Below, one piece after another: positions 1 to 64,000 of a stretch of DNA of 64,000 nucleotides. Under the pieces are notes generated by a model. That model saw only the letters and a list, made by a program, of their open reading frames with translations. It did not search any database and was not told where the DNA came from. The stretch covers positions 34,898-98,897 of the IMG/VR virus record IMGVR_UViG_3300036826_000567. One strand, given 5' to 3'. Position numbers and translations under genes: made by a program. Every line of letters starts with the position of its first letter. The first letter of the stretch is position 1. The stretch comes from a virus.

Positions 1-969
1 GTCAATTCGCTCATCTACATCTATGATCGGCAACCCGAGCCGAAACTTCGCGCTGTCTTGGGCAAGCTCGGGCCGCTGGGGGCAGAATTTGGCCTCCAAC
101 TCCTCAATAGCCTTGGGCAAATCGTCTTTGATGCGCGTACGGGCATGAATGAGCATGGCATTGAAGACAGCGCGATCACGGCGGGCAAGATCCGAGTTGG
201 AGCTATTAATGCCGGCCATCTGACCACGACCAGCGCCGTGATCACGGCCACGGCCCAGATGGCCAATGCCATTATTGGCGATGCCCAGGTGAGCACGATT
301 ACCGTCAACAAGGTCATCAATGGCGTGATGGCCAACCTCTGGAACATCGGCGTTGGCAACAAGTTCTTCATCGATGGCTTCAACAGCAACCTCTATGTCT
401 ACGATGCCCAATTTGAATTTCCCGATAACCGGATTCGCGTCTTGCTCGGACGTGTCGGGAGTGGCGTGCAGGATTATGGGTTGCGGATCTGGGATGCCAG
501 CGGCACTCTCCAATGGGATTTCACGGGCGTGCGGACAGCAGGTATTACCCCCGGCAATGTCACCACGCCAACGGTGGCCGGCTACGCCATCACGAAAACC
601 GCCACGATGGTGGCGCCAGGACAGGTTACTACCGACAACACGCTGACGTCCGGGGGAGCCATCGCTATTGGCCCGCTCGCGAGTGAGGATCGTGTCCACA
701 TCATCATGAAGGTCAATGGTCAGAATATCGGCTCAACGGCGGCGCAACTCGAAACAACCCTGCGCGAAGATGATGGCTTTGGCTCCGTGCTCGATGTCGG
801 CTACCTGAAGGATAGCGGCCTGGGGACTGTGGTGATGCAGGGTGTCTTCATCGCACCTGTGGGCGGATTGGCGTCGAAAACGTTCGTCCTGATCTTCCGC
901 AATGCCATCGGAACGGATCTGGTGGGGGTGTCCAATCGCAGCTTTGTTGCCACGCTGCTTCAGAGGTGA
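1..969 (+). CDS. Phage tail / host-specificity-like protein, C-terminal part (5'-truncated by window)
   Basis: Frame is open from base 1. Contains internally repeated unit (IYIYDRQ..LRAVLGKLG / LYVYDAQ..IRVLLGRVG) and 'SAITAGKI..ITATAQMANAIIGDAQ' repeats typical of tail-tip proteins. Confidence 0.55.
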   Translation, partial: VNSLIYIYDRQPEPKLRAVLGKLGPLGAEFGLQLLNSLGQIVFDARTGMNEHGIEDSAITAGKIRVGAINAGHLTTTSAVITATAQMANAIIGDAQVSTITVNKVINGVMANLWNIGVGNKFFIDGFNSNLYVYDAQFEFPDNRIRVLLGRVGSGVQDYGLRIWDASGTLQWDFTGVRTAGITPGNVTTPTVAGYAITKTATMVAPGQVTTDNTLTSGGAIAIGPLASEDRVHIIMKVNGQNIGSTAAQLETTLREDDGFGSVLDVGYLKDSGLGTVVMQGVFIAPVGGLASKTFVLIFRNAIGTDLVGVSNRSFVATLLQR

Positions 970-1394
970 GAATGCAGCTTATCCACTATCGGCGGGAAGA
1001 TGGCAGTATTGAGGCGGTCTATGAATCAGGGCTCCGGGAGATCCTGGAACTCAACCGCCGCGAGGATGACGTGATTGCCTCGGTCTTCGTCGATGATCCC
1101 GTTCTCGCTGCCCACCATGAGCGCTACCAGATTGTGGATGGCTGGGTCCAATTGAAAAGCCAGCTCCTGCTCAGCGCGGAGCCTCCCGCTCTTCCTGCTG
1201 ATGGCATCTCAACGAGTACCATTACCGTGACGCCGTTTGTCCCTTGTCGGCTCGACGTCAACGGACGGCAGGTCATACTTACCCAGGATGATCCTATGCT
1301 GGTCCTGACGACGGATCAGGTGCAGCCAATCACCATCACGCTTGTGGCTATGCCAGGGTACTGGGCGCAGCCCCTCACCGTGGAGGCTGTCTAG
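966..1394 (+). CDS. Hypothetical tail-associated protein with Ig-like segment
   Basis: Overlaps the upstream stop codon; ALPADGISTSTITV Ig/invasin-like motif. Confidence 0.4.
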   Translation: MRMQLIHYRREDGSIEAVYESGLREILELNRREDDVIASVFVDDPVLAAHHERYQIVDGWVQLKSQLLLSAEPPALPADGISTSTITVTPFVPCRLDVNGRQVILTQDDPMLVLTTDQVQPITITLVAMPGYWAQPLTVEAV

Positions 1395-1396
1395 CC

Positions 1397-1606
1397 ATGC
1401 CCCGGCTTGACTTGCGCTTTGACCTGGCAGATCGCTTCACGCTCAACGAGCAGGTACTCTTGCGTGTGATGCAGCGCATGGTCAATCATATGCGGTTTTC
1501 AGCGTCAGGCTTTCTCAGTGACGAGGATGTGCGCGTGTTCGTCCAAGAGGTATTTCGCGATCTACAACCTCGCACCCCTGGCATGCCCAGCCAGGAAGGA
1601 TCGTAG
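1397..1606 (+). CDS. Hypothetical protein
   Basis: GGAGG RBS; tight operon spacing. Confidence 0.5.
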   Translation: MPRLDLRFDLADRFTLNEQVLLRVMQRMVNHMRFSASGFLSDEDVRVFVQEVFRDLQPRTPGMPSQEGS

Positions 1607-1608
1607 GC

Positions 1609-2721
1609 GTGGCATACCTCGGACACGACGGCACTGGCCCAGACTGGCCTTACGAAATTGACACGATCCAGACGTTCGTCAATGGGCCGTCACCTGCGCC
1701 GGACAGTGATACTCGCCTGGACGCTGAGCTGGTCAACGATCTGTTGCGCACCCTGCGTGTCTTCGAAGTGACGATGGGCACGCAACCCCAGGGTGGTTTT
1801 GCCTCGGTCGCAGCCCGTCTCAACTTCTATCTCCCTGACGTGGGTGTGCCGCCCAACGTGATCGGCTTCGTCAACGAGACGACGCTGATCGTCCCAGGCA
1901 CGCAGCACCAGCTTGGCACACCGCAACTGGTCTGGAATCTGTGGGATGCCGGGACGCCTCGGCATACGATTGAGCCAGGAAGCTTCACCGTGCATCCGAC
2001 GTCCTATGATGTGCAACTCACCTTCAACGTGCCCCAATCAGGCACGCTGGTGCTCGATGCCCCTACGGCTCGCTATGAAGCCGCTATTACGACCGTGGCC
2101 AATACCCCGTTGACCATCCCTGGCACGGCGCATAGCCTGGCGACGGCTGATCTGTTCTGGGCGTTGTACACGGATGCCACGCCGCGTGTGGCCCTCGTCC
2201 CCCAGCGCTTGACAGTGCATCCCAGCAGCTTTGATGTCCAGATCACGACGAGCACCTCGGGCACGTTTCGCCTGGTCCTCACCCCTGGCCGCACGGCCTA
2301 TGCCACCAATTTTAGCGCAGTCTCGACGCCACCGTTCACCGTACTGGGGACGACCCATGACCTGCTCAGTGCCGCACTCCTCGCCCAGGTGTATGACAAT
2401 GCCACGCCGCGGGAAGCGATTCCGCCTGGCAGTTTAACCGTCGATCCCGCGAGTTTTAACGTGGAGTTGGCCTTCAACGTGGCACAGAGTGGGCGCCTCC
2501 TCCTCGCGGCTGTGGCGCCTCCCCCTGGAGCACCCTTGACGCTCTCGGCGCTCGCGGTGCAACAGCAGACCCAGTGGCCGCGTACCGGTCCGATTGATCC
2601 AGTCCCCGTGCTGATGCGCACCGTGCAGGCCCTTGAGGCACGGATTATGGCCCTCGAGGAATCGCAGCTTGCGCTTTTGAGCCACCTGACTGCTCCTATG
2701 CCAGAGGAACCTTCAGCATGA
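1609..2721 (+). CDS. Putative structural protein with three ~75-aa tandem repeats and C-terminal coiled coil
   Basis: Repeats of GTxHxL..L....D..TPR..I.PGSxTVxPxSFDV; C-terminal 'VQALEARIMALEE'. Confidence 0.6.
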   Translation: MAYLGHDGTGPDWPYEIDTIQTFVNGPSPAPDSDTRLDAELVNDLLRTLRVFEVTMGTQPQGGFASVAARLNFYLPDVGVPPNVIGFVNETTLIVPGTQHQLGTPQLVWNLWDAGTPRHTIEPGSFTVHPTSYDVQLTFNVPQSGTLVLDAPTARYEAAITTVANTPLTIPGTAHSLATADLFWALYTDATPRVALVPQRLTVHPSSFDVQITTSTSGTFRLVLTPGRTAYATNFSAVSTPPFTVLGTTHDLLSAALLAQVYDNATPREAIPPGSLTVDPASFNVELAFNVAQSGRLLLAAVAPPPGAPLTLSALAVQQQTQWPRTGPIDPVPVLMRTVQALEARIMALEESQLALLSHLTAPMPEEPSA

Positions 2722-4706
2722 GAAAAACGCTCTATCGTAGTATGGCTTTGCTCCTCCTGATGGTCTCACTCGCTTTTGGCCAGGCGCAGTTGATCAATGG
2801 CAGTCGCGTCATTGCCGGCTGGATCAATGCCGGCACGACCGCAGGCACGCAGCCGGCCTATACCCTCACGCTGAGTCCAGCCCTCCCTGGCTATGTCACT
2901 GGCACCTGCGTCCTCACGACCATCCATGCGGCCAATAGTGGTGCAAGTACGTTGAATGTCAATGGTCTTGGGGCCAAGCCGTTCAAAAAGTGGTCGAATG
3001 GCATCCTTGTCGATCTCGTCGCGAATGACTTCGCCGTCGGGCGCATGATTTCCGCCTGCTACGACGGCACCAACATGCAGGTGATGTCGCTCGGCGGGGA
3101 TGCCCCCTTAGCGACGGCCCCCGATGACACGATCATCATGGGAAACGGCACGGCCTGGCAGCAGGTGGCCATTCCCAACTGCGTTGATCCTAATCATCTC
3201 AACTACACGGCGGCAACCAATACGTGGTTATGTGGGAGCGGCGGTACGGGGACCGGTGGGCACATCATCAAAGATGAAACGACAACCTTACCTGCCCAGC
3301 CCATCTTAACCTTTTTGGGTGCTGGCATTACGTGCGCCAACAATATTCCGAACACCGCGACCGAGTGTGTTGTGACCGGGACAGGAACCGGGCTCCCAGG
3401 CGCCGCAGGTACCGGCATTATCGTCCAGAACTCTATGACCCCAACGACGATCAACCGCACGCTCCAGGTTGATACCAGCCAACTCCAGATTGCCAATGCC
3501 AACGGCGTGGCGGGTGATCCGCTCATCAGTATCAAGCAAGGCGCCGTCCTCAGCAATCCAGTCATCTCCAGCGTCAATGCGCAGACCGGCACGACCTATA
3601 CCATGCTAGCCTCCGATGTCTGGAAGCTGGTGACATTCTCCAATGCCTCGCCCATCGCTGTGACGCTGCCCCAGGCGACGACCGCGGGCTTCACCGCCGG
3701 CACGGTCTTTCCGGTACGCAATCTCGGGCCAAGCATCGTCATCATCACGCCGACCACCTCGACCATTGACAGCGCGGCCTCGCTCAGCCTAGCAGCCAAT
3801 GATAGTGCGCTCATCTACTCCAATGGGGCGCACTATGTGACGCAGCGCATGGGGCCTCCGCTCGGATTCACGGCAGTGCCTATCACGCGCCAGGTGAACA
3901 GCCATCCGCTCTCCAGCGATGTCATCGTGACCAAAGCGGACGTGGGGTTGAGCAACGTCGATAACACCAGCGACGCCACAAAGAATAGCGCGACGGCCAT
4001 CCTGGAAAATAAGCAGGTCGTCCCCCGCGTCCTCTCGCTCTCGGGTGGCACCTGCACCGTGGGTGGCACCTGTACCGGGACCGTCAGCGCACCCAATGCC
4101 GACAATGGCGACATCTACTACCACTACAACATCACCGGCGACATCACGATCCCAAACCCCACCGCCACCGGCAGCAACCCGCGGCATGGCCAGGTCATCA
4201 CGTTCATGTTCTTGTGCGACACCCCGCACAGTATTGCTTGGGGCGGCAATTTTTCAGCAGAGAACAGTCTCCCACTCTTGCCGAGTTGCACCGGGGGCGG
4301 GACGTACGATCAAGTCGCCACCCGCTACAACACCAACTCCCTGAAGTGGGGCGTTATAGCTGGAACGAGAAGTGCTCGTGGCGTGGTGGCGTTCAATACC
4401 ACGAGCACCAGCTATACGCTCACGTGCCCCGCCGACGCCGCCAGCCTCTGCGAATTACAGAACACTGCCGTGAGTACCGGCGCGATTACGGTAGCTGCCC
4501 CTACCGGGACGTTTTTTAATGGCCAGCAGTTAAGGTTTAGGTTTCTATGTACTAATGCGCAGTCGATCACCTGGAATGCCATCTTCGTCAATTCGCCCAA
4601 TGTGACGGCTCCCGCGAATTGCCCTGCGGGCACCTCGGCTTTCACGATGGCGGGCGCCGAGTATAGCACTGTTTTATCTAAGTTCCAGATTATTGCAACA
4701 AATTGA
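2718..4706 (+). CDS. Tail-fibre-like Thr/Gly-rich protein with N-terminal signal peptide
   Basis: Signal-like MRKTLYRSMALLLLMVSLAFGQA; fibre motifs NSGASTLNVNGLGAK, NAQTGTTYT and VTKADVGLSNVDNTSD; two repeated C-terminal domains. Confidence 0.6.
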   Translation: MRKTLYRSMALLLLMVSLAFGQAQLINGSRVIAGWINAGTTAGTQPAYTLTLSPALPGYVTGTCVLTTIHAANSGASTLNVNGLGAKPFKKWSNGILVDLVANDFAVGRMISACYDGTNMQVMSLGGDAPLATAPDDTIIMGNGTAWQQVAIPNCVDPNHLNYTAATNTWLCGSGGTGTGGHIIKDETTTLPAQPILTFLGAGITCANNIPNTATECVVTGTGTGLPGAAGTGIIVQNSMTPTTINRTLQVDTSQLQIANANGVAGDPLISIKQGAVLSNPVISSVNAQTGTTYTMLASDVWKLVTFSNASPIAVTLPQATTAGFTAGTVFPVRNLGPSIVIITPTTSTIDSAASLSLAANDSALIYSNGAHYVTQRMGPPLGFTAVPITRQVNSHPLSSDVIVTKADVGLSNVDNTSDATKNSATAILENKQVVPRVLSLSGGTCTVGGTCTGTVSAPNADNGDIYYHYNITGDITIPNPTATGSNPRHGQVITFMFLCDTPHSIAWGGNFSAENSLPLLPSCTGGGTYDQVATRYNTNSLKWGVIAGTRSARGVVAFNTTSTSYTLTCPADAASLCELQNTAVSTGAITVAAPTGTFFNGQQLRFRFLCTNAQSITWNAIFVNSPNVTAPANCPAGTSAFTMAGAEYSTVLSKFQIIATN

Positions 4707-4725
4707 ACTATAAGGAGACTTCTCT

Positions 4726-5265
4726 ATGAAATTTTCCTCTATCGGCCCCGCCTGGTGCTTCCTGGCGCTCCTGCTCTACGCTGCCTATGGCCAGGCGCAA
4801 GAATGTACACAGGCTGAATTGTCAGCCGAGTTCTCTACAGATCCCACCGCCCGTGGCTATGCCACCTGCACGGATGATCCGTGCTATCTGGACAAGCTGA
4901 ACGAACCATGCATCGGCAATGCGAACTGCAACAAGGTGGAGAATGTCCTGACGCGCGAGCAGATTTATCAGACGATCATTGACGCTACTGAGCTTGACAC
5001 GCTAGCGAACGGCACCGCGCCTGCCGATGTCAAGCACCAGAAGGAACTCGGGTGGCTGCTGAATGCGACCACCTGGAATATGGCACTCAATAGTTCGCAG
5101 AAACACTGGAAAAATCCGTTTCCAAGTTCTACGAGTCCTATTACAAACGCCGCGATAGACGCGGCAAAACTCCGGGATGCGTCGCGGTGTCAGGCCGTGT
5201 GTAGTAAGAGTGCCTGCACCCTGTCCGAGGTGTCATGTGGGTTGCGCGGCGATGATTGCCAGTAG
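4726..5265 (+). CDS. Secreted Cys-rich hypothetical protein
   Basis: Signal peptide ending YGQA; AAGGAG RBS; multiple Cys. Confidence 0.6.
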   Translation: MKFSSIGPAWCFLALLLYAAYGQAQECTQAELSAEFSTDPTARGYATCTDDPCYLDKLNEPCIGNANCNKVENVLTREQIYQTIIDATELDTLANGTAPADVKHQKELGWLLNATTWNMALNSSQKHWKNPFPSSTSPITNAAIDAAKLRDASRCQAVCSKSACTLSEVSCGLRGDDCQ

Positions 5266-5274
5266 AGGAGATCG

Positions 5275-5781
5275 ATGCCCATGATGAGACGCCTACTTGT
5301 TTTCCTGCTCATCAGCCTGTTGCTCGCGTCCCCGACCTGGGCCGCCACTGTCACCAAGCTCCAATCCAGTACGCAGGACACCTGGCATACCGGGGGTGCA
5401 GGGCTCACCAGCGGCTCGACCGTCCTGAGTAGCGCGGTCACCGTCACGAGCGCCGGCTATCTCGGGGCCAACTGTCTCCTCAATGTCGCGTCCTTCTCGA
5501 CGAATGTCACGGCAGGGACCGCGGTCGTGGCCTGGTTCATCGTCTCGCCAGATGGCGGCACGACGTACCCTGATACCGCTTCCACGCCGCAGTGGACTCC
5601 CGACATGATTTTTCCCCTGCAGGGGGGCATCAGTACGCAGCAAATCATTCCCTTTGAGATTCCGCTGGGCAAACTGCCCGTAGGGAGCTTCAAAGTGCTC
5701 ATTAAAAACGATGCGACCGGCGCCACGATGAACACCGCATGGACACTCAAATGCAAACCTTTCACGCTCCAATCCAACTAA
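5275..5781 (+). CDS. Secreted beta-sandwich hypothetical protein
   Basis: Signal peptide ending TWA; GAGGAG RBS. Confidence 0.6.
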   Translation: MPMMRRLLVFLLISLLLASPTWAATVTKLQSSTQDTWHTGGAGLTSGSTVLSSAVTVTSAGYLGANCLLNVASFSTNVTAGTAVVAWFIVSPDGGTTYPDTASTPQWTPDMIFPLQGGISTQQIIPFEIPLGKLPVGSFKVLIKNDATGATMNTAWTLKCKPFTLQSN

Positions 5782-6554
5782 TCCTGCTGGTGCTCCTCGG
5801 CTGGGTGGCCCTCGCCTCGGCCCAGAGCAATGATAAGCCCATCCTCTGGTGGCGCTTCGATGAGGTTGGCGGCAACAAAGCCTATGATGCCAGCGGCAAT
5901 GGGAACACCGGCGTCTTCAGCTCGGCGACGATGACGCGGCCCAATGACCCCGTCCATCGCGGCGTCGTACAACAGCCAAGCACCTATGCGACGGTGACGG
6001 CCACGCATGTGCCCGAACTCAATCCGGGCAGCAGTAATTTTACGGTGACGCTCTGGATCAAAAATAGTCAGCCCACCATTGATTCGGTGTTCTTCGTGAA
6101 GGGGAACTATGCCGGGCCGTTTACCTCCATTTACCTCTGGACAGCCTCGGCGGGAGGCGGCGTGGACAATTATTACAATGGCTCAGCGGATATCAGCCTG
6201 GGCGCCTCGACGTCTGCCTGGAAGCATCTGGCCGTGACCCGGGCAGGGACCAGTATTACCACCTATGCCAATGGCAGTCAGGTCGCGACGGGCACGCATA
6301 GTACCTCGCTGAGCAACACCAACAACCTGACACTCGGTGGGGCGAGTGACGCGACGGCCTGGTGCGTGTGTAGTTTTAGCGATGTGCGCCTCTATTATCG
6401 CGCGATGACGGCCGCTGAGATCCGCCAGGTCTACCGCGAGGGGCTGATGCCACCTCCTGCGCCCGCATCGGTGACCGATCTTGCTGCCGCCCTCCTCCTG
6501 AGCCCTGCTGGAGGCGCCAAAGGGAGCTTTTTCCGGTTCTTCGAGCCGCAATAA
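5739..6554 (+). CDS. LamG / concanavalin-A-like domain protein with signal peptide
   Basis: WWRFDE..AYDASGNGNTG, FTVTLWIK, WKHLAVT and SDVRLYYRAMTAAEI are characteristic LamG-like motifs. Confidence 0.85.
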   Translation: MDTQMQTFHAPIQLILLVLLGWVALASAQSNDKPILWWRFDEVGGNKAYDASGNGNTGVFSSATMTRPNDPVHRGVVQQPSTYATVTATHVPELNPGSSNFTVTLWIKNSQPTIDSVFFVKGNYAGPFTSIYLWTASAGGGVDNYYNGSADISLGASTSAWKHLAVTRAGTSITTYANGSQVATGTHSTSLSNTNNLTLGGASDATAWCVCSFSDVRLYYRAMTAAEIRQVYREGLMPPPAPASVTDLAAALLLSPAGGAKGSFFRFFEPQ

Positions 6555-6565
6555 AGGGAACGCTT

Positions 6566-9160
6566 ATGCCGCTCTGCTCCATCGTCCTCGGTCTTCTCGC
6601 TCTCCTGCTCTGGCTCCAGCCGGTTGACGCGCTCAATGCCCAGTATTACTTGCATCCGGGCAGTGGCAACGATAGCTGGGCTGGTACCAGTCCCACGCTG
6701 AGTGCGCCCAACGGTCCGTGGAAGACGCTCAACAAAGCCGCTGCCAGTACGGGGCAGGGCGATGTCGTCACGATTCTGCCAGGCAGCTACACCAGCACCC
6801 AGATTATCAGCAGTGGGAGCGCGCCGAATCGCTGGTTGCGTTGGACCGAAAGCCTGGGGAAGGGCGTGGCTGGGAACCCGATCACGATCCAGGCCACGCC
6901 CGGTACCGTCACGATTGATGCCCAACTGAACGACTACCTCATCTCGTTCTGGCCCAACGGCGTGACAACCGCCTTTTATGTGGTCGTCAAGGGCCTGACT
7001 ATCACCAACACGCGGGGGGGCGGCCTGGATGTCTCGGGTGATCCCACTATCAGCTCGGCGCCCAGCGCCTATTTCAGCACCCATGTGGCGTTCCTCGACA
7101 ACCGCATCACCAATGTCGGCTCGCTGTGTAGCGCGCCATTTGGCACCACCTCGGCCAACCATATCATCTGGCAGCATAACTCCCTCTTCAATAGTGGCGA
7201 TCCGAGCATTTATGCCGCGGGCTGTGGGGCGGATACGTCCTCGCAACACTGGGTCTACCCCGGCCATAATGTCCAGTATAGCGTGGTGGACGGCAATACG
7301 TTCGAGAGCAATTCTGGCCACGGCGTGCATTATTTCGGCAATGATAGTGCCTTTGCCCACCTCTACGACCACACGATCATTCGGCGCAACATCCTCATTA
7401 ATGCGGCGGTGACTGGGATGATTACCAGTCGATCCAATTTTGACCACACGTATATCTACCACAATACGCTGTATCAGGAGGCCGACCCCTATCCTGCCGC
7501 CCCCTGGACGCCGAGCGGGCGGGCGAGCTACGGCATCGCGCAACATCTGAGTACGTCGCTGCAGCGCACAATCATCAAAAATAATATTGTCTATGGCTAT
7601 GCCGATTCAGGCATGCTGTTTGCCGACGCGAATAGCAACTTTAATGGCACCTTAACGCTGGACTATAATCTGATTGACAACCTCTTTGATAGCACCAAGG
7701 CGTACAATTTCGATGGGACCGGGCGGAACTTGACGAGCTTCAAGGCCGCCTATCCGACCTATGCGCAGCACAGCCTCCAGGCCAATCCCCAGTTTACCAA
7801 TCCGGCCAGTCCCACGCGGGATTTCAGCCTGGGGGCCACGTCACCCGCCAAGAATGCCGGCGATTTTCTCACCCAGGCGACGAACAGCGGGACGGGCAGC
7901 ACGAGTCTCCAGGTGGCGGACGCCGGATATTTCCATGACGGCTTCGGGTTGATCGCAGGGGATACGATCCAGGTTGGCACCGGGCAGGCCCCGGTCGTGG
8001 TCACCGCCGTGAATTATAGCACCAACACTCTCACCCTCCAGAATGCGCGCACCTGGACTTCGGGGACCAACGTGTCGCTGCCCTATAGTGACACCAAGCC
8101 GGATATGGGGGCGCTGGAGAGTGCAGTGGTGGCCAGTCCAGTCACGGTGTTTGTCGATGACGATGCGGCCAATGACAGCCAGCCCTGCGCGAGTGTGGAT
8201 ATCACCCATCCCCGCAAGACGACGGCGGGCGGCGTAACCTGTCTCACCCCGGGCTCGACGCTGTATTTCCGGGCCGGCACCTATGATCTGCTCACGTCCG
8301 CGACGATGACGATTCCCGGCGGCAGTGACTGGGCCAGTGCCACGACATTTGCCGCCTACGGTGGCGAAGCCGTCACCCTGCGGACGACGGCCATCAACTC
8401 GTCGGTCGTACAATTAGCAGCGCCAGGGACGAATCAGTACATCGTCTTTGACCGCCTGACCCTGGATGCCCAGAGTCTCGCCAACACCTATGGGCTCCAG
8501 CTCAATGGCGTCAGCAACATTCGGTTCCAAAATGGCACCATCAAGAACGCGACGAACCCGTGCGTGTATACCCCGGGCAGCAGTGGCATTGAGATCCTGG
8601 CGAGTCGGATCTTTGGGTGTGACGATGGCGTAAACATGGGGACGACGACCAGCAGCCTCGTCGCCAACAACCTGCTCTATGGCAACAATCGGGGGGTCGC
8701 GGTGCGCTCGGGCAGTACCGGCGTCAAGGTCTACTACAACAGCGCAGGGAACAACGCGGTGCGCGGGCTGAACATTGTCACCGGCGCCGTCAATACGGAG
8801 CTGCGCGGCAACATCAGCTTCGCCAACACGAGCGACCCGAGCCAGCAGATCCTCGATGAGACGGGGGGCACCAGCGGCAATGTCGTCGCCAACAACCTGA
8901 CGACGGACCCAGCCTGGCTCAACGGCCCGGCCAACGATTTCCACCTGACGAGCAGTAGCACCGGGGCACTCAATACGGGGGTAGCCCTGCCCGAGGTGAT
9001 GACGGACTTCGAGGGGACGGTGCGCCCAACCGCTCCCGGGAGCAATCCGGACCTCGGAGCGCTTGAGTGTGGCGCAGCCTGTGCGGGGCCGCCGGTGCCC
9101 CCCTCAGTCTCGACGCCACTGCCAGCGCCGCCGTATATCACGCACTTTTTGGCACGGTGA
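6566..9160 (+). CDS. Secreted right-handed parallel beta-helix (pectin-lyase-like) protein with two beta-helix modules
   Basis: Signal peptide; GSGNDSWAGT..PWKTLNKA, Asn-ladder repeats, DFSLGATSPAKNAG and PDMGALE motifs, repeated in the second half. Confidence 0.85.
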   Translation: MPLCSIVLGLLALLLWLQPVDALNAQYYLHPGSGNDSWAGTSPTLSAPNGPWKTLNKAAASTGQGDVVTILPGSYTSTQIISSGSAPNRWLRWTESLGKGVAGNPITIQATPGTVTIDAQLNDYLISFWPNGVTTAFYVVVKGLTITNTRGGGLDVSGDPTISSAPSAYFSTHVAFLDNRITNVGSLCSAPFGTTSANHIIWQHNSLFNSGDPSIYAAGCGADTSSQHWVYPGHNVQYSVVDGNTFESNSGHGVHYFGNDSAFAHLYDHTIIRRNILINAAVTGMITSRSNFDHTYIYHNTLYQEADPYPAAPWTPSGRASYGIAQHLSTSLQRTIIKNNIVYGYADSGMLFADANSNFNGTLTLDYNLIDNLFDSTKAYNFDGTGRNLTSFKAAYPTYAQHSLQANPQFTNPASPTRDFSLGATSPAKNAGDFLTQATNSGTGSTSLQVADAGYFHDGFGLIAGDTIQVGTGQAPVVVTAVNYSTNTLTLQNARTWTSGTNVSLPYSDTKPDMGALESAVVASPVTVFVDDDAANDSQPCASVDITHPRKTTAGGVTCLTPGSTLYFRAGTYDLLTSATMTIPGGSDWASATTFAAYGGEAVTLRTTAINSSVVQLAAPGTNQYIVFDRLTLDAQSLANTYGLQLNGVSNIRFQNGTIKNATNPCVYTPGSSGIEILASRIFGCDDGVNMGTTTSSLVANNLLYGNNRGVAVRSGSTGVKVYYNSAGNNAVRGLNIVTGAVNTELRGNISFANTSDPSQQILDETGGTSGNVVANNLTTDPAWLNGPANDFHLTSSSTGALNTGVALPEVMTDFEGTVRPTAPGSNPDLGALECGAACAGPPVPPSVSTPLPAPPYITHFLAR

Positions 9161-32792: not shown

Positions 32793-32793
32793 G

Positions 32794-48245: not shown

Positions 48246-48266
48246 GATCATAGAGGAGAATCTACT

Positions 48267-48800: not shown

Positions 48801-49053
48801 GCCACCAGCAGGACGCTGAAGGGCACGCAGAGGGGGTGGGAGCACTCGGCCCCCTCGGCGTGGAGAGCGACGAGTGTTGACATAGAGTCGGTTGGACGGT
48901 TCATGCGGACTGAAGCCGGCCCTCGAAAAAGAGCGCGGGTCGTCAGCCTACGGGGGTCAGTCCAGATCATCACACATCCCGAGGGAAGGAGACACGGGCA
49001 TGCAAGGACCGTGGGCTCAGGGAGTAGCACTCAACACATGGAAGGCAGGTGTG

Positions 49054-49944: not shown

Positions 49945-49952
49945 GGAGCGGT

Positions 49953-50312: not shown

Positions 50313-51350
50313 GGGGATTCCCGCAGGCGTAGCACGTCCGCTACGGAGTAAGATGTTATGTGCAGCATTGGTATCGCGATCATGCAGAACACCGCAACTG
50401 GTACAACACCATACCCTCACGTCCAGGCAACTCAGTCCACTCGGGCCGGTGCGACTACCACAGGCCGAGCAAGTTACCGTGGACCCGGATTCATTCACAT
50501 CGCAATATTCCACGCCAAGCCTCATGGCTTTGTATACAAGCATGGTACGAAACATGGACCAACCCGCATCATAGATCGATTTCGCCATGCGGGTCTTGGC
50601 AAGCTTCGAACTGGAGATATTGCCCACGGCAATCAACCGTGCCCGCTGCGCAATAGTGGTCGAGGTTTTATGTGCCCAGTCTTTGCGGCAATTGGCGATC
50701 TTGGCATGGATCGCGCTAACACGCCGCTTCTTATGGGCTCTCTGTACCATGGCCAAAGCATCTTCATAGGTACGCGTCAGATTCTTTCTCGAGTATTTGA
50801 CGCCATCGGAGCAGGCAATCAAGTCTTTCAAACCAAGGTCAAGACCAATGTCAGCGGTCGAAGTCGAGGGCTGTGGCAGCTCAACTTCACACTGGATGTT
50901 GACGTACCAGCGTCCACGTGCGTCTTGCGTAAAGCTCCCAGTCTTCGGTGTGCCTTCGATCGGACGCGACGCCCAAAAGCGATAGCGGCGTTTCAGGTAC
51001 GTCAAGCTGTCGTCGTCCAGCTTGAGAAAGCGCAGCTTGAAGGGCACCCAGCCGAGCGAGCGCTTCCGACTACGCCACTTCAGCCGTCGCTTGCGACTGG
51101 CATAGCGCTTCCCCACATATTCCCGACAAATCTCGGAGATGGTGTCACTGTGCAGGCCAAGCTCCGCACTGGCACCAGCGGTCAAATTAATCAAGTCTAC
51201 CGCCGTCAAGAAGCGCTTATCACGGCGCAGCGCAAGCATGCTGACTTCATTACACCAGTTCCAGACAGTATTGACAGCCCAGCTCAGCCGCCTGAGGTGT
51301 TTGCCTTTGGTCGCATCTTTGATGCGGTAGCGAAACGTCAGTATCGACAT
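50304..51350 (-). CDS. tnpB: TnpB with rearranged RuvC-II
   Basis: GLDLG; IAVGN in place of the canonical Glu; alternative Glu in VNES; CSACG..CTSCG; DRDTNAA. Confidence 0.93.
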   Translation of the reverse strand: MSILTFRYRIKDATKGKHLRRLSWAVNTVWNWCNEVSMLALRRDKRFLTAVDLINLTAGASAELGLHSDTISEICREYVGKRYASRKRRLKWRSRKRSLGWVPFKLRFLKLDDDSLTYLKRRYRFWASRPIEGTPKTGSFTQDARGRWYVNIQCEVELPQPSTSTADIGLDLGLKDLIACSDGVKYSRKNLTRTYEDALAMVQRAHKKRRVSAIHAKIANCRKDWAHKTSTTIAQRARLIAVGNISSSKLAKTRMAKSIYDAGWSMFRTMLVYKAMRLGVEYCDVNESGSTVTCSACGSRTGPSGLSCLDVRVWCCTSCGVLHDRDTNAAHNILLRSGRATPAGIPLL

Positions 51351-51496: not shown

Positions 51497-51609
51497 AGCG
51501 CATATTGTAACACATAATGCGCTACATTTCAACCATGTTGCCCTTGTGGGGCAAGGCGCATTCCTCCCCGGCCTTTAGTCCGGGGAGGAATGCACCGTTA
51601 GGAGCGCCT

Positions 51610-53139
51610 ATGTCCCGACTCGTATGCTCGGCTTATGTCCTCGCGTTGCTCCTTCTGACGGCTTCCGCTCCCTCGGCGGCGACGTTCTACCTCAATCCCG
51701 CGACCGGCGCGGACAGCAACCCTGGCACCCAGGCGGCCCCGTGGAAGACGCTCCGCAAGCTCATGGCCAGTGTCGGCCCTGGCGATACCGTGACCATCCA
51801 GCCCGGCAGCTATACGCAGGACCAGTGGGTGCCGGGCGGGGGCTATGAGCTCTGGACCGAGGCGCAGGGGCGGGGCCACCCGGGGGCGCCGATTACGATC
51901 CAGGCCGCGACCCCTGGCAGCGTCACCTTCAACGGGCAGCAAAACACGTACTGGGTCTACCTGTATAGTACCGGGGCGCCGTACTACCTCGTGTTCAAAA
52001 ACCTCACGTTCCAGAACTATCGCGGCGTCGCCCTCGGCATTGGCGGGAGTTACGTCGCGGTGCTCACCTGTACGTTTGAAAACTTCTCGCCGCAGTTGAC
52101 GGCTCCGATCGCCATCGGGGACGCGCATCACGTGATTGCGCAGGGGAACCGCATGAAGAATATCGGTGATCCGCGCCTGGGCGGCGCGCCGCCACCGGAT
52201 AGTCAGCATTTCATCTATGTCGCCGAGAATGTCCAACACGTGGTGATCGACCGCAATGTCATGGAAGGCAACTCTGGCTTCGGCATCCACTTCTGGGGCC
52301 ATAGCAACTTTGGCGTGACGACGCAGCAGAGCATCGTGCGGCGCAACGTGGTGGTCAATGCGTGGGATACGACGATGATCCTGGCCGGCACCAACTACCG
52401 CAACACGTATGTCTATAACAATACGTTCTACCAGGAGCGCGTGCCCTTTCCGGCGGTGAACCAGGACATGGCCCTGACGATGCTCTCCTGGCACCTGGGG
52501 ACACAGCTCAGCCATACGCGGGTGGTGAATAACATCGGGCGCGGCTATGTGCAGTACGGCGCCGTGTGGTCCGATGACAATAGCCGGTTTGGCGGCGATC
52601 TCCTGCTTGACTACAACCTCTGGCAAAACCTGGCGGCCCCCGCGCAGCTCTATACCTGGAGTGCCGCCGCCTATGACCAGCAGACCTTTCGCGGGGCACT
52701 CGGCTATGAGCCGCACAGCCTGGCCGTCGATCCGCGCTTCGGGGACGAGACGGGCCGCGATTTCACGCTGCAGCCGGGCTCCCCCGCCATCGACGCGGGG
52801 ACGTTCCTCACGACGACGGTGGGGAGTGGTAGTGGCACGACCCTCCCGGTCCAGGACGCGGGGTATTTCCACGATGGCTATGGGTTGGTGGCGGGCGACG
52901 TGGTGCAGCTGGAAGGGGGCCCGGCGGCGCAGGTGACCGCGGTCGACTACGACCGCAATGTGCTGACGCTGGCCACGGCGGTGACGTGGCGGGCCGGCCA
53001 GGGCGTGGCGCAGCGCTACACGGGGAAAGCGCCCGACATGGGAGCCAAGGAATTTGGCCTCAGCAGTGACGATGACGCGCCCCTGCCCCCGGTCCTGCCC
53101 GCGCCCTATGACCTGCGGCTGGGCAAGATCGTGCGCTGA
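51610..53139 (+). CDS. Secreted beta-helix protein, paralogue of the N-terminal half of 6566-9160
   Basis: Signal peptide; shared PWKTL, PITIQA, GSG.T.L.V.DAGYFHDG.GL.AGD and PDMGA.E motifs. Confidence 0.85.
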   Translation: MSRLVCSAYVLALLLLTASAPSAATFYLNPATGADSNPGTQAAPWKTLRKLMASVGPGDTVTIQPGSYTQDQWVPGGGYELWTEAQGRGHPGAPITIQAATPGSVTFNGQQNTYWVYLYSTGAPYYLVFKNLTFQNYRGVALGIGGSYVAVLTCTFENFSPQLTAPIAIGDAHHVIAQGNRMKNIGDPRLGGAPPPDSQHFIYVAENVQHVVIDRNVMEGNSGFGIHFWGHSNFGVTTQQSIVRRNVVVNAWDTTMILAGTNYRNTYVYNNTFYQERVPFPAVNQDMALTMLSWHLGTQLSHTRVVNNIGRGYVQYGAVWSDDNSRFGGDLLLDYNLWQNLAAPAQLYTWSAAAYDQQTFRGALGYEPHSLAVDPRFGDETGRDFTLQPGSPAIDAGTFLTTTVGSGSGTTLPVQDAGYFHDGYGLVAGDVVQLEGGPAAQVTAVDYDRNVLTLATAVTWRAGQGVAQRYTGKAPDMGAKEFGLSSDDDAPLPPVLPAPYDLRLGKIVR

Positions 53140-53487: not shown

Positions 53488-54066
53488 CTAGTCCACCGGT
53501 GAGGCGGTGGCTTTGGCCTGGTTGAGGGCCTTGCTAATCGTCTGCCGCGAGCAGTGCAGCTCTTTGGCCATGTCGGTAATCGTCCTGTGGTCCCGCTCCA
53601 TCCCATAGACGCGGTATAAGTCCTGCTGGCTCAGGCGTGGGGGTCTGCCGCCTTTTCTGCCCCTGGCACGGGCAGCCTGGAGTCCGGCCTGTGTCCGTTC
53701 AATAATCAGATTGCGCTCCAACTCGGCAAACGCGGCGAGGATGGTAAAGAAGCATTTGCCAGCGGGCGTGGTCGTATCGATGTTATCCTGGAGACTCTTG
53801 AGCCCAACACCCTTGTGCGCAAGCTCCTCGGCAAACTCAATCAGTCCCTTCACGGTGCGTCCGAGGCGGTCCAGCTTCCAGACCACGAGGGTATGGGGGC
53901 CAGCTTGACAGCACCGGACAGCCGCGGCCAGTTGGGGGCGTTCCATGCGGGCACCAGACGCCACTTCTTCATAGACATCGACGCAGCCGGCTTGATAGAG
54001 GGCGTCCTTTTGGAGGTTCAAAGATTGGTCCTCGGTACTCACGCGTGCATACCCTATGAGGTTCAT
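53488..54066 (-). CDS. Small serine recombinase (resolvase/invertase)
   Basis: IGYARVSTEDQ, LVVWKLDRLGR, AELERNLIIERT..GL.AARARGRKGGRPP; C-terminal HTH. Confidence 0.95.
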   Translation of the reverse strand: MNLIGYARVSTEDQSLNLQKDALYQAGCVDVYEEVASGARMERPQLAAAVRCCQAGPHTLVVWKLDRLGRTVKGLIEFAEELAHKGVGLKSLQDNIDTTTPAGKCFFTILAAFAELERNLIIERTQAGLQAARARGRKGGRPPRLSQQDLYRVYGMERDHRTITDMAKELHCSRQTISKALNQAKATASPVD

Positions 54067-55053: not shown

Positions 55054-55797
55054 TTATGGATACCAGTTCCACACCGGGTCTTTCCCGGTCACGCTGGGCA
55101 AGTACGTTCCATCTTGCTTATCAGGACGCACGTACTTGGCCAAGAAATCGACCTTCAGGGCGCGTGCGCCTCCCCGTTTCGGATCAATCAACTCATGACG
55201 CTCTACCCGCCACACCGCGCCCTCGACCGGATCAAGTGCGCCATGGCCCGAGGTCGTGATGGCCTCCAAGGCTGCCTCAATACTGTAGGGGCCACCGACA
55301 TGCAACACGCAGGGGCAGGCGACATCATAGGGCAGCACGCGCTCGACCAGCTGTCCCCATGGGAGTCGCACGTCGCCGCGCATCAAATCAAAAGCCACGA
55401 ACGGATCATCGTCTTTGATGGCGTAGCGGGTGCCATGCGCCTGCATCAGCCACTCCCCACAGAGGCGCTCACCATCTTCGAGTAAGTCGAGGAAGCGCTG
55501 CTGATGGCGATACACCCACTCGCCAAACCGCCAGTGCTGCTCATAGGGTGAGCTACTGGCGATATAGCCAGCGCGCGTCAGGGGGTAGAGGCGTCCGTCG
55601 ATCTTCGCTATCCCTACGTTACTTCCGTCTACTTTCTCTTGTACTATAATCACGTCATGCTTATCGCGGACCTTTTCGGTGGCGATGCGCTTCTGACCCT
55701 CATGACATTTGTGATCGCCAGGCCCCATACGCGACCCGGGTAAGTGCGCTATATGTCCATAGCTTTTCTGGCCTAGGGGCTTGCGGATATCTCGCAC
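55054..55797 (-). CDS. RNA ligase (Rnl2-like nucleotidyltransferase)
   Basis: Motif I QEKVDGSN; CGEW; FVAFD; EGAVWR; AKYV. Confidence 0.85.
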   Translation of the reverse strand: MRDIRKPLGQKSYGHIAHLPGSRMGPGDHKCHEGQKRIATEKVRDKHDVIIVQEKVDGSNVGIAKIDGRLYPLTRAGYIASSSPYEQHWRFGEWVYRHQQRFLDLLEDGERLCGEWLMQAHGTRYAIKDDDPFVAFDLMRGDVRLPWGQLVERVLPYDVACPCVLHVGGPYSIEAALEAITTSGHGALDPVEGAVWRVERHELIDPKRGGARALKVDFLAKYVRPDKQDGTYLPSVTGKDPVWNWYP

Positions 55798-55925
55798 GAG
55801 CTGTTTCCTTTCCACCGTTTTAGACTCACAACGAATCTTCACACATTGTTCCCCACACAAAGGGTCTCTAGAGGCCCTAAACTCTCCCGTTCCTCCTGTG
55901 TCCCTGAAAGAGGTGTTTGAGGATG

Positions 55926-56147
55926 TCAAACGTCAAACGCCCAGACCGGGTCATCATGCCCGCAGGCCTCACAGTGGCAGGCGTCCATGTCCTCCCAGGG
56001 CCGCGTCTCGTCCGTCACGGCTCCGGTGACCAGTGCCCGCTGTGGAGCATGGACATGCCAGGCCTCCCCCTCCTGGGTGAGCCGTATCTCCAGTGGATGC
56101 GTAATGAAGAACTCGCCCGTATTGCCACAGGCCGGACATTGGAACAT
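55926..56147 (-). CDS. Small zinc-ribbon protein
   Basis: CPACG..CEACG. Confidence 0.55.
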   Translation of the reverse strand: MFQCPACGNTGEFFITHPLEIRLTQEGEAWHVHAPQRALVTGAVTDETRPWEDMDACHCEACGHDDPVWAFDV

Positions 56148-60334: not shown

Positions 60335-61078
60335 CTAGTCCAGCTCCTCGACGCTACAGACGCCGATGCTTAGAGCATCGCGCAATGCCCTCGCCTTTGC
60401 CCGTGTCAGTGCAATCCGCAACCAGTGCACGGCAACATCTTTGTGAACATTGCCTGGGGTTGCATCGGCGCAGGCCCTGAAGATGCGACCATCGGCAAAT
60501 TCGGCCGTCGCCATGGTTAAGGCCAGTTTCTCCGTTGGCACACCAATAAAGTCTTCCGACAGCTTCACCAACCCTTGCTGCGTGGCCATCTCCAACAAGC
60601 CGAAATATTTGACAAAGGGCTTGCCGCGAATGAGCTGGATGTACTGCTGGGGAATCGCCCTGCTTGCGTGCAGGTCCGCTTCATCTGGGCTGTGGTCGTC
60701 CGCAGGTGCGTCCGGACCGAGGACCTGATCGGGTGCGGGTGGTCCTGCCCGGAAAAGTTCATCGGCTTTGAGATAGAGCGCTGCGCCGAGTCTGTGCTTG
60801 CAGTAGCCCTTGTGGGCCTGCTTTGCCCGCTCGCAGTCACAATGTCCGTTGACCGCGTAAAAGACGGTCGCGTCCTTGCCGCTGCGGACCTGGCAGGTGG
60901 CGCCATTGTCCTCATAGAAAACCGCGCCGCTGAGCACCAAGCTGGTCGCCCGTTCCAGATCGCCATGGAGACTGGCGGGGAGTTTCGCGTGGGCGATGGC
61001 GCTCGCCTGGTTGACGGCCTTGGTCCAACCCCAGCTGTGGGGCTCGACAGTCGGGACGGGATGGGGTACAGTTGCCAT
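60335..61078 (-). CDS. SWIM zinc finger fused to a putative ssDNA-annealing-like domain
   Basis: CDC..YCKHR (SWIM); GKPFV..GLL..ADATPGNV..RIALTRAKARALRDAL. Confidence 0.6.
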   Translation of the reverse strand: MATVPHPVPTVEPHSWGWTKAVNQASAIAHAKLPASLHGDLERATSLVLSGAVFYEDNGATCQVRSGKDATVFYAVNGHCDCERAKQAHKGYCKHRLGAALYLKADELFRAGPPAPDQVLGPDAPADDHSPDEADLHASRAIPQQYIQLIRGKPFVKYFGLLEMATQQGLVKLSEDFIGVPTEKLALTMATAEFADGRIFRACADATPGNVHKDVAVHWLRIALTRAKARALRDALSIGVCSVEELD

Positions 61079-62336: not shown

Positions 62337-63326
62337 CTAGAAGAGCATGAGTTGCTCGCTGGCGCGGACAGATGGCTCAGCCTGCGGCACGGCAGGGGTC
62401 TGCGGTCTCTGGAGGGCCGCTTCCATCGCCGTCTTCTGCGCGTGCCCGTCCTCATTGTTCTGGCCCTGTATTGCCGCGACCAGGCCGGTCATAACATCGC
62501 GTTGATGCATACCCGTCTTGTGCGGACGCACACATTTGACCAGGACGGACTTGACGTTGGCCCCCGATTCCTTGAATGTGTCATCCGGGAGTGGGGTGAG
62601 GGTGGCGTTCCAGATATCAAGCAGGCTGCGGAAGCACTCGGCCCGGCTGCCCCGGTGCCACTGGATACTCTCCGGCATCACGGCGACCAGGCGTCCTCCG
62701 TCCTTAAGCCATCCCAACGCATGCGTCACATGGGCAATGTCCTGCCCCTTCGTCCAGGGGGGATTCATGACAATGGCATCGTAGAGCAACGGCTCCTCGT
62801 GCGTCGGCAGGCACTGCTCCAGCCAATCCTCACACCAGACCACGAACCGTGGCCAGCCCTTCTGGCGTAACGCGTCGACCAGGTGCGGTTGAATCTCATA
62901 GGCAATCAGGGAACTCTCCCTGTTGTCGAGAAAGCCAGGTACACGCACCACCGCTTCAATGAGACGGCCCGTGCCGGCATTGGGCTCACACACGTCCTCC
63001 CCCGGACGAATACCCGCCTCGCTGACGATCTGATCGGCCAGCCAGACCGGCGTCCAAAATTCCTGATACACCTGCTGGGCGGTCGGTTGAACGGTGACGG
63101 TGCCTTGGGCGAGCACCTGGGCGAGGGCGGCCTGGGGATCGGTCGTAAAGAGATGGGCCTTGGCCTTCCGATTCCAGGCTCCCCCAAGCTCTTCCAGGAC
63201 ACGGTTCACTTTTGTATACAGCGTGCGCTCAAGTTGGCGCGCAGGCAGGAGGATGCGATCTGCCTGCGCCGTCGCCTGCTGCAGCACCAGGAGCACATCG
63301 GCGTCACACTGGATGGTTCGCGACAT
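62337..63326 (-). CDS. Class I SAM-dependent (N6-adenine) DNA methyltransferase
   Basis: FWTP, EPNAGTG, AYEI, catalytic MNPPW, GGRLVAVMP, FKESG. Confidence 0.85.
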   Translation of the reverse strand: MSRTIQCDADVLLVLQQATAQADRILLPARQLERTLYTKVNRVLEELGGAWNRKAKAHLFTTDPQAALAQVLAQGTVTVQPTAQQVYQEFWTPVWLADQIVSEAGIRPGEDVCEPNAGTGRLIEAVVRVPGFLDNRESSLIAYEIQPHLVDALRQKGWPRFVVWCEDWLEQCLPTHEEPLLYDAIVMNPPWTKGQDIAHVTHALGWLKDGGRLVAVMPESIQWHRGSRAECFRSLLDIWNATLTPLPDDTFKESGANVKSVLVKCVRPHKTGMHQRDVMTGLVAAIQGQNNEDGHAQKTAMEAALQRPQTPAVPQAEPSVRASEQLMLF

Positions 63327-63397
63327 AAAGTCAGTTCCTTTTCTCGGCTAGGTGTCAGAAATAAACCCCTGGTCTCTTTCTGTATCTTCTGTTGCCC

Positions 63398-63616
63398 TCA
63401 CTCCTGGCGCCAGCCCCGGGCGGCCAGACATTTGCCCATCAGGTCATAGTACGTCACCAGGCTCATGGACGGCATGGCCACCGACGAGGCTTCATAATCA
63501 CAGCGCGCCTTATCGGCTTCAAAGTCGGCCGTGGTGGCGCCGGGCTTCTGGTAGTGGGTGGTGCAGGCGGTCAGCGTCAGGGCCAGGGTGAGCATTACCA
63601 GGACATATCTATTCAT
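63398..63616 (-). CDS. Small lipoprotein
   Basis: Lipobox LTAC; KPGAT..DF..D..C....C..ARGW. Confidence 0.7.
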   Translation of the reverse strand: MNRYVLVMLTLALTLTACTTHYQKPGATTADFEADKARCDYEASSVAMPSMSLVTYYDLMGKCLAARGWRQE

Positions 63617-63914
63617 CGTGGTCTCCTGGCCAAGTGCGTCCTGGCGGATTGAGGGTGCCGAGGGCGGTATGGACCGCATTATAGACCGCATTGTAAATAC
63701 TCGTACGCTGATGCGGGGTCATGGCCTTGTGGACGTCAGGGTACATCTGGCGGACATACTCACGGACATACAGGCGCACGTCCTCCGCCACCCGTCGTTT
63801 CTCGTCGGGACTGATGCGGTCCCAGCAGTCGCAACCCACACGTATGGGCGTATCACACTTGGCACAGCGCCAGTCGACACGGTCAAGCAGATGATCGATG
63901 GAAGATTTCGGCAT
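63609..63914 (-). CDS. Hypothetical protein
   Basis: AAGGGAGG RBS; CAKC. Confidence 0.5.
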   Translation of the reverse strand: MPKSSIDHLLDRVDWRCAKCDTPIRVGCDCWDRISPDEKRRVAEDVRLYVREYVRQMYPDVHKAMTPHQRTSIYNAVYNAVHTALGTLNPPGRTWPGDHDE

Positions 63915-64000
63915 GGGGCACCTCCCTTGTGCTTAGTCAAACATCCACGCATGCCTGTCGCTATAACTCCATCCTGCACCACGCAGGGTGGCAATCTCCG

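Follow-up and report, generated by a model that had tools for sequence, protein, structure and literature searches.

Can one replicon be equipped both to travel in a virion and to pass from cell to cell by conjugation? Phage infection and conjugation are usually treated as alternative strategies, opposed in their costs, in their host ranges and in their limits of size, and according to a 2025 review no phage-plasmid is known to be conjugative. The question is raised by a 64-kb stretch of DNA (hereafter the window), comprising bases 34898-98897 of a single IMG/VR viral contig of 98,897 bp, whose last 64 kb it forms. An earlier sequence-only reading of the window had noticed phage genes and a conjugation-type type IV secretion system (T4SS) on the same element, and had interpreted that element as a candidate conjugative phage or phage-plasmid. 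We analysed the whole contig as G000, together with two elements related to it through their conjugation (tra) genes, G001 and G002, and four related through their head module, G003-G006; coordinates are window positions unless marked contig. Both gene sets, virion and tra, lie on one molecule, which confirms the observation, and the interpretation is supported. The best explanation, to which we assign a probability of about one half, is that the element is a temperate siphovirus-like phage kept as a plasmid of ~99.1 kb, with a resident conjugation-type T4SS and dual transfer.

Virion, replication and conjugation genes of the element

The hallmarks of a tailed phage (terminase, portal, major capsid and tail) are all present on the contig. 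Head and packaging genes, which the sequence-only reading had proposed to seek in the flanking sequence and whose absence it had named as refuting, are encoded in the upstream 35 kb, namely TerS (phrog_4102), TerL (phrog_675, E 8e-74), portal (phrog_145, E 5e-104), scaffold, major head protein (phrog_212, E 2e-78), head-tail adaptor and an 871-aa tape measure. The same reading had placed tail genes in the first 9.6 kb of the window, and this holds in the match to phrog_31, in the minor-tail and baseplate PHROGs at 1609-9160 and in synteny with tail genes in four other viral contigs (Table 1). Every large structural gene examined has an open frame of full length. The tail-module paralogue that had been noticed beyond the tra operon is likewise real, and its product could be an alternative receptor-binding protein. 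This second tailspike-like gene lies 42 kb from its paralogue and adjoins the gene of a small serine recombinase of resolvase/invertase type. A further stretch of ~5 kb between the portal and scaffold genes is filled with small, mostly minus-strand genes (L001:7795-9164).

The replication module had been read as an initiator with iterons followed by a primase-helicase. Matches to HTH_36 and O-like PHROGs and the Toprim and DnaB_C domains bear this out, as do the iterons themselves, GTTCATGTGG(C/T)GAACAA, of which at least four copies lie inside the initiator gene at 22101-22294 (families D1/D2). This module, the sole one found, is phage-type, its initiator being phage O-like and not a plasmid Rep.

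The tra operon is uninterrupted, as had been claimed, and occupies the + strand between ~32.26 and ~46.58 kb. Its genes follow the F-type order, with TrbI, TraC, TraU and the coupling protein above Pfam cut-offs. The TraH-like and TraG_N-like assignments come from weaker leads, and a 134-aa open reading frame (ORF) separates the TraU and coupling protein genes. To judge from database comparisons, the tra proteins are extremely divergent. Among ten tra proteins, NCBIfam returned only a sub-threshold TraL match and no F-type or ICE-type (integrative and conjugative element) model at threshold, and profiles built from three trios of tra proteins matched no PDB sequence. In a set of 72,556 plasmids the nearest TraC reaches 28% identity, over the C-terminal half; GenBank phages yielded no more than two matches, both remote and partial (24-25% identity), and one of these is a Salmonella plasmid record. 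No TraC relative was found in species-representative genomes by TraC and alignment scans, which are pattern-limited and not proof of absence. The closest TraC homologues, at 65%, 56% and 54% identity, are on contigs of 33.5, 66 and 20 kb.

Table 1 Features of the window, with the evidence for each assignment (TM, transmembrane segment; IS, insertion sequence).
Feature	Position	Strand	Evidence
J-like central tail fibre, C-terminal end of 1688 aa	1-969	+	phrog_31 E 4e-109; gene start 4.1 kb upstream of window; 50% over 1553 aa to G001 orthologue
Tail-tip/fibre-associated genes	966-1394, 1397-1606, 1609-2721, 2718-4706, 4726-5265, 5275-5781, 5739-6554	+	PHROG minor-tail and baseplate-wedge; orthologues in tail modules of G001, G003-G005
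864-aa tail fibre or tailspike with beta-helix region	6566-9160	+	Paralogue of 51517-53139; partial matches in G001, G004-G006
TnpB-type (OrfB_IS605/Cas12f-like TNB) IS gene	12754-13968	+	phrog_506 E 5e-82; PF01385 and PF07282; low-GC patch 0.52
Gp3-like (recombination-directionality-factor-like) protein	13983-15128	-	PF18897 E 9e-30; 56% to G001
HNH-AP2 homing-endonuclease-like gene	16103-16696	-	HNH_3 and AP2
N6/N4 DNA methyltransferase	17644-18543	-	PF01555 E 1e-26
Toprim-DnaB primase-helicase	19888-21639	-	Toprim_4, AAA_25, DnaB_C; phrog_239 E 5.5e-91
Lambda-O-like replication initiator	21760-22647	-	HTH_36; PHROG 'replication initiation O-like'; 46% identity to G001 ORF
VRR-NUC/Hjc-like nuclease (weak)	29767-30255	-	E 1.3e-3, below Pfam cut-off; 63% homologue in G003
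HTH regulators, divergent	31001-31429, 31417-31764, 31758-32081	+, -, +	HTH_3/HTH_31 for first; Xre-type motifs in other two
Candidate pilin, first operon gene	32259-32792	+	Signal peptide and two hydrophobic Gly-rich segments; hydropathy/sequence only, no family match
TraL-position protein	32746-33084	+	TIGR02762 TraL E 0.05, below cut-off; one TM; homologues in G001 (tblastn) and G002
TraE-position protein	33270-33872	+	Position, N-terminal TM or signal peptide, kept in G001/G002; no family match
TraK-position protein	33869-34636	+	Position, N-terminal TM or signal peptide, kept in G001/G002; no family match
TraB/VirB10-like protein	34636-35892	+	PF03743 TrbI E 2e-12, above cut-off
TraV-position ORF	35915-36544	+	G001 homologue, tblastn 34% over 119 aa; no family match
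TraC/VirB4-type ATPase	36525-39080	+	PF19044 E 4e-18, above cut-off; homologues carry PF11130 TraC_F_IV
Conserved 194-aa tra ORF	38962-39546	+	Homologues in G001 and G002; no Pfam match
TraH-like periplasmic protein	39550-40818	+	ESM Atlas features 0.97 to TraH-bearing clusters; PF06122 no match
TraG_N/VirB6-like polytopic membrane protein	40815-42350	+	ESM Atlas 0.94, structure TM-score 0.61; PF07916 on G001 orthologue E 2e-7, below cut-off
175-aa membrane/zinc-ribbon tra ORF	42362-42889	+	Position; weak DZR_2; sequence
TraU	42879-44159	+	PF06834 E 1e-13, above cut-off
Type IV coupling protein (TraD/VirD4 type)	45029-46582	+	TraG-D_C, TrwB_AAD_bind, T4SS-DNA_transf, all above cut-off
168-aa ORF adjoining coupling protein	46446-46952	+	Kept in G001 and G002; no Pfam match
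Integrase_1-type tyrosine-recombinase protein, candidate atypical relaxase	48892-49944 (likely start 49054)	+	PF12835 and PF12834 (Phage_int_SAM_2), above cut-off
Second TnpB (IS605 OrfB/Cas12f-like)	50304-51350	-	PF07282 E 1e-19; PF01385
Beta-helix protein, tailspike paralogue	51517-53139	+	Beta_helix, Pel9A-like; 41.6% identity over 495 aa to 6566-9160 product
Small serine recombinase (resolvase/invertase type)	53488-54066	-	PF00239 E 2e-43; 49% homologue in G002
RNA ligase	55054-55929	-	PF09414 E 4e-21
247-aa protein outside tra, common to G000/G001/G002	60335-61078	-	43% and 32% identity; weak SWIM match
DNA methyltransferase-like protein	62337-63326	-	phrog_9133 E 1e-47; phrog_6263
Last 68 contig bases, outer part of putative 309-bp inverted repeat	63933-64000		Exact reverse complement of contig 2864-2931 (self-BLAST)

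The tra module recurs in three diverged phage-like genomes

G001 and G002 were recovered from IMG/VR by TraC alignment. The diverged G001 answers the call of the sequence-only reading for relatives with the same synteny of tail and tra genes, since it carries both modules. It is a sipho-type genome of 141,598 bp, rated 100% complete by CheckV, whose 99-bp terminal overlap indicates a circular assembly. TerS (47%), the tail module with its J-like fibre, the initiator and several other genes are common to G001 and G000 (further identities in Table 1), and the whole tra module is colinear between them at 24-47% identity; the TerL, portal and capsid of G001 differ from those of G000. G002 (122,663 bp), with its sheath, its baseplate and a capsid of yet another type, is myo-like, and it contains the same tra module at 31-44% identity. 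The tra module is conserved and colinear in all three of these genomes, the identity to G000 summarised over both relatives being 35-47%.

The history of the module is not that of the tails. TraC is 56% identical between G001 and G002, while either is 43-44% identical to G000; the tails group G000 with G001. Because the tra genes join G001 to G002 and the tails join G000 to G001, recombination must have separated and re-paired the tra and virion modules on more than one occasion, although they remain associated with phage genomes. The GC content of tra differs by no more than ~1% from that of the structural block in G000, G001 and G002 alike, and we regard tra as a resident module, not a recent insertion. 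Further tra relatives occur on 23 soil metagenome contigs, mostly too short for context.

A candidate relaxase beside the coupling protein

A conjugation system that moves its own DNA would need a relaxase, and the most suggestive gene in this respect encodes a tyrosine-recombinase-type (Integrase_1) protein. A match to PF12835 above cut-off lies beside the coupling protein in G000, G001 and G002, and the R-K-HxxR-H-Y catalytic set is intact, with GLRRE, KGGR, HGLRH, ELGH and a C-terminal Y invariant in the three orthologues. In the Burrus-lab classification PF12835 is the 'INT_DTR_like' signature of the SGI1 relaxase MpsA, and MobK, MpsA and TcpM are experimentally supported tyrosine-recombinase-like relaxases. 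The pairing extends to a 27.9-kb soil contig (L044, Ga0299913_10000353) which, with a TraC of 26% identity, keeps the order TraB-TraC-TraH-TraG_N-TraU-T4CP-Integrase_1 (T4CP, type IV coupling protein) and whose flanks gave no informative matches. Since this order is kept at 26% TraC identity, the association of coupling protein and Integrase_1 is older than the three phage-like elements. Its adjacency to the coupling protein, the order in L044, the invariant catalytic set, the MpsA signature and the existence of known tyrosine-recombinase-like relaxases together make the Integrase_1 protein the best relaxase candidate, and a relaxase role is predicted for it on these grounds.

A wider proposal, which we advance tentatively and hold to be possible, is that a soil lineage of tailed phages or phage-plasmids keeps a complete self-serving conjugation system (F-order T4SS, coupling protein and fused MpsB-MpsA-type relaxase), its tra module being swapped among sipho and myo backbones as a phage-associated T4SS clade.

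Plasmid state and genome size

Contig bases 1-56 are the exact reverse complement of contig 2623-2678 by self-BLAST, and the last 68 bases match the other end of the same region (Table 1). The simplest reading is that the two ends belong to a second copy of one 309-bp inverted repeat (contig 2623-2931) that would span a circular junction, which would leave no more than 185 bp unsequenced in a replicon of ~99.08 kb. The sequence-only reading had proposed to look for circularity, and the ends do appear to close into a circle; such a circular assembly could also arise from packaged or from replicating DNA. Plasmid-type maintenance genes are present: a ParA ATPase is encoded at contig 1784-2461 (- strand; AAA_31 E 2e-19, CbiA, MipZ), with the gene of a 69-aa RHH protein downstream. 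The phage-plasmid interpretation gains support from the ParA and RHH genes and from the closing ends, and the element would accordingly be maintained as a circular plasmid. Besides ParA and the RHH gene, the 2.6-kb segment bracketed by the putative repeat pair contains an HNH-like ORF and another ORF of 239 aa; the segment may be an invertible or transposed partition cassette. Just outside the repeat are two small lipoprotein genes in inverted orientation, at contig 2948-3169 (+) and window 63398-63691 (-), with ~75% DNA identity.

A genome of this size is also compatible with the head. The capsid protein belongs to a very abundant lineage with thousands of metagenomic homologues, the best at 92-93% identity and many at 90-93%, and is therefore under recent constraint. 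Relatives of ~90% identity sit on contigs of 100-119 kb. In the IMG/VR fragments G003-G006 the portal is ~70% and the capsid 91-93% identical to that of G000, and G003-G005 also have a G000-like tail module at ~40-55% identity. Their CheckV completeness of 36-70% implies full genomes of ~90-115 kb, and the nearest GenBank TerL matches include phages of 90-95 kb; a single-protein pattern scan with TerL, limited by its pattern, returned nothing. Given relatives of these sizes, a 99-kb genome is plausible for this head type.

Weighing the dual-transfer model

If the element is a phage-plasmid with dual transfer, the tra operon would build a mating channel in the lysogen, the tyrosine-recombinase-type protein would nick a putative origin of transfer (oriT) near its own gene, and the coupling protein would pass the DNA to the channel, so that the whole replicon could enter a neighbour cell without lysis. 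On induction, TerS/TerL would load the same DNA into capsids, whose lineage has a size suited to ~90-115 kb. The oriT and the activity of both transfer routes are predictions from gene content.

A number of findings weigh against this model. On the conjugation side, six-frame searches of G000, G001 and G002 found none of the canonical relaxases PF03432 (MOBP/Q), PF08751 (MOBF) and PF07514 (MOBH), MOBV, MOBC and MOBT not having been searched, and a short-word comparison detected no conserved oriT-like sequence upstream of the three Integrase_1 genes. Multimer resolution or integration is an equally conceivable function of the Integrase_1 protein, whose homologues are found on numerous small plasmids lacking a T4SS in the vicinity. 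TraN, TraW, TraF and the pilin are not recognisable, and several tra assignments were made by gene order alone. On the phage side, no endolysin was recognised in G000 with PF00959, PF01510, PF01464, PF01471, PF13539 and PF00182 (the PF00182 control gave no match, and other lysin families and holins were not searched), nor did Pfam/PHROG scans of candidate ORFs reveal a lysis gene; with neither endolysin nor holin recognised, release by lysis is unsupported. As for the replicon, IMG/VR lists the record as linear with a CheckV completeness of 88%, closure of the circle would follow from just 56 and 68 bases, and ParA is without a counterpart in G001 or G002. Finally, the head lineage numbers thousands of members, against 19 proteins found for the tra lineage (by TraC), and most head relatives are therefore probably without tra.

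With respect to lysis, G000, G001 and G002 are alike in showing no free-standing endolysin by the six common families, and the SLT domains of G001 and G002 lie inside tail proteins.

Some of these points could be accommodated if the element were a real phage or phage-plasmid with a resident T4SS that does not move the element itself. The apparatus might then serve as an adhesion pilus or channel, in recipient recognition or exclusion, in the export of protein or other DNA, or in mobilising co-resident elements, and the Integrase_1 protein would be a dimer-resolution or inversion recombinase. Such a role is in keeping with the lack of a canonical relaxase and of a detected oriT, with the unrecognisable mating-pair stabilisation genes TraN, TraW and TraF, and with the frequency of Integrase_1 homologues on small T4SS-less plasmids, and Bacillus phage G already has TraC-/TraD-like ORFs, described as of 'function entirely unknown'. 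It is harder to reconcile with the retention in all three elements of a coupling protein with TraD/TrwB DNA-transfer domains. The Integrase_1 gene, moreover, still adjoins the coupling protein at 26% TraC identity, a better fit to a DNA-processing module than to a chance neighbour, and PF12835 is a known relaxase signature. We consider this alternative unlikely.

Alternatively, a conjugative plasmid lineage may repeatedly have captured, or fused with, different tailed phages. The phage part of G000 would then have lost the ability to package all 99 kb and be a prophage gone defective, or a remnant resembling a tailocin or gene-transfer agent; the element would spread by conjugation only and owe its 'viral' label to nothing but its gene content. 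This would explain why the same tra genes accompany three structural modules (two different head sets and one myo-type tail) and why tra is closer between G001 and G002 than to G000 although tails are common to G000 and G001 only; the unrecognised endolysin and the IS/TnpB and homing-endonuclease insertions are in keeping with it, and cointegrates of conjugative plasmids and phage-plasmids are known, such as Escherichia coli p1002-1. Against it, the sole replication module found is phage-type, and neither an integrase nor att sites were found. Genes of phage type flank tra on both sides (tailspike paralogue, RNA ligase, methylases), the large structural genes are full-length, the capsid is 92% identical to widespread relatives in a head lineage apparently sized for 90-115 kb, and tra has no close plasmid relative. 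We consider this second alternative unlikely as well.

Integrity of the assembly

Whether the phage and tra genes are truly contiguous was examined in independent assemblies. Three soil sequencing runs contain the sequence, and no RNA run is listed among the runs containing the stretch. In the probable source run, two Logan contigs (13,977 and 13,684 bp) match window 30501-40490 and 40466-50500 with zero differences at depths of 11.2 and 11.9, and each continues 3.6-4 kb past the compared stretch and so crosses the left (~31.7-32.3 kb) or right (~50.3 kb) tra edge. Both tra boundaries are thereby bridged by independent contigs at even depth, which contradicts a chimeric assembly, an outcome set beforehand as refuting. 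The second and third soil runs hold short low-depth fragments only; one run, from a different study, has fragments of 100% identity at low depth.

The absence of a compositional break, which the sequence-only reading had asserted, is borne out by the numbers: GC is ~0.60 throughout, with dips only at a TnpB gene (~12-14 kb) and the replication origin (~22-24 kb), four blocks give 0.596, 0.594, 0.607 and 0.601, and tetranucleotide usage in the tra and structural blocks correlates at 0.88. An ICE nested in a prophage had also been named as an outcome contrary to a single element, and its marks were not found. Direct repeats bounding the tra block are limited to short imperfect matches of chance quality; no PF00589 integrase was detected in G000, G001 or G002, in a search whose positive control matched 14/14 genomes; and no close relative without tra was found, G003-G006 having only 65-75% DNA identity and being 36-70% complete. 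The contig has no host genes or host flanks, the window has no tRNA genes, and megablast of 25-kb pieces gave no DNA-level match in GenBank phages or PLSDB plasmids. An artefact or recent accident, whether through chimeric assembly of the metagenome or through fresh entry of an ICE or plasmid into a prophage, is thus largely refuted and highly improbable: although this is a short-read metagenome contig of linear IMG/VR class and G003-G006 show no tra in their available parts, the independent assembly of the run has the same joins at even depth, identical fragments occur in a second study, the combination of phage and tra modules is found independently in G001 and G002, diverged by ~40%, and neither bounding direct repeats nor a compositional break was found.

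The host of the element appears to be an uncultured soil bacterium with a GC content of ~60%. A TnpB search for the host gave a single named match, a Candidatus Tectomicrobia metagenome-assembled genome (69%), too weak to use.

Comparison with known systems

Phage-plasmids such as P1, N15, SSU5 and the families of Pfeifer and Rocha resemble G000 in combining virion genes with ParA on a circular extrachromosomal replicon (a state predicted for G000) and in having no classical integrase; they are reported to be without a mating-pair-formation (MPF) system, whereas G000 has a tra operon. That operon shares with MPF_F and with the MPF_G T4SS of PFGI-1/ICEclc type the order L-E-K-B-V-C ... H-G ... 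U ... D and the TraB, TraC, TraU and TraD domains, but differs from them in a TraC of at most 28% identity, in the lack of a MOBF or MOBH relaxase and in a replicon that is a phage genome. The candidate relaxase is like MpsA (SGI1), MobK (pIGRK) and TcpM (pCW3) in its PF12835 signature (as in MpsA), its intact R-K-HxxR-H-Y set and its position beside the coupling protein. In G000, PF12834 is fused N-terminally to the catalytic domain, whereas MpsA needs a separate MpsB, and MobK and TcpM are without a core-binding domain; MpsA and MobK, furthermore, serve mobilisable elements and not self-transmissible ones.

There are also parallels for the combination itself. E. coli p1002-1, like G000, unites phage-plasmid and conjugation genes on one replicon, but it is described as a multi-replicon cointegrate fused from two recognisable present-day plasmids. 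For G000 there is no plasmid tra relative, the search for replication modules revealed just one, and phage and tra genes are combined in three elements diverged by ~40%. In phage-ICE tandems and prophage-bearing conjugative megaplasmids, phage and conjugative apparatus travel together as in G000, but as separate elements joined by integrases and att sites; in G000 neither these nor separable boundaries were found. A screen of putative phage-plasmids met only 'sporadic' T4SS domains. Bacillus megaphage G has a pair of TraC-/TraD-like ATPase ORFs of unknown function, in contrast to the ~15-kb operon of G000 with channel, outer-membrane and pilus-assembly components and a relaxase candidate. G000 thus differs from known cases in a T4SS clade without a close plasmid relative, in the one replication module found, in the absence of integration scars and in its recurrence in three diverged genomes.

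If the dual-transfer model is true, two transfer routes can coexist on one replicon, which would offer a test system for the trade-off between killing and keeping the host. Metagenomic 'viral' elements could then move particle-free, beyond a receptor-limited host range. The known range of T4SS would be widened by a clade met, to date, exclusively on phage-like contigs, and relaxases of tyrosine-recombinase type would reach beyond mobilisable islands into a self-transmissible system.

Other genes and minor observations

Two further claims of the sequence-only reading stand in part. The VRR-NUC nuclease is represented by the weak match listed in Table 1 (E 1.3e-3), which is below cut-off. Of the five HTH genes placed in the switch between the replication arm and the tra operon, three were recognised, one encoding an HTH_3/HTH_31 protein and two encoding products with Xre-type motifs. 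The last of these, encoded at 31758-32081, has homologues in G001 and G002. It is one of three small genes outside tra that are common to G000, G001 and G002, the others being 49953-50312 and 60335-61078.

The two TnpB genes of the window are diverged, with 28% mutual identity. TnpB relatives (74% and 68%) occur on contigs of 119,379 and 20,037 bp, lengths that recur in contigs carrying, respectively, a capsid relative of 89% identity and a TraC relative of 54% identity. Adjoining the HNH-AP2 gene in an AT-rich patch is the gene of a 186-aa protein (15546-16106) with conserved Cys/His positions and a 54% homologue in G002; its AlphaFold model (pLDDT 56) was too poor to classify and was not used for a fold search. 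A 684-aa ORF at 23457-25511 (-), which has no family match, overlaps a row of small + strand ORFs with high GC at third codon positions (GC3).

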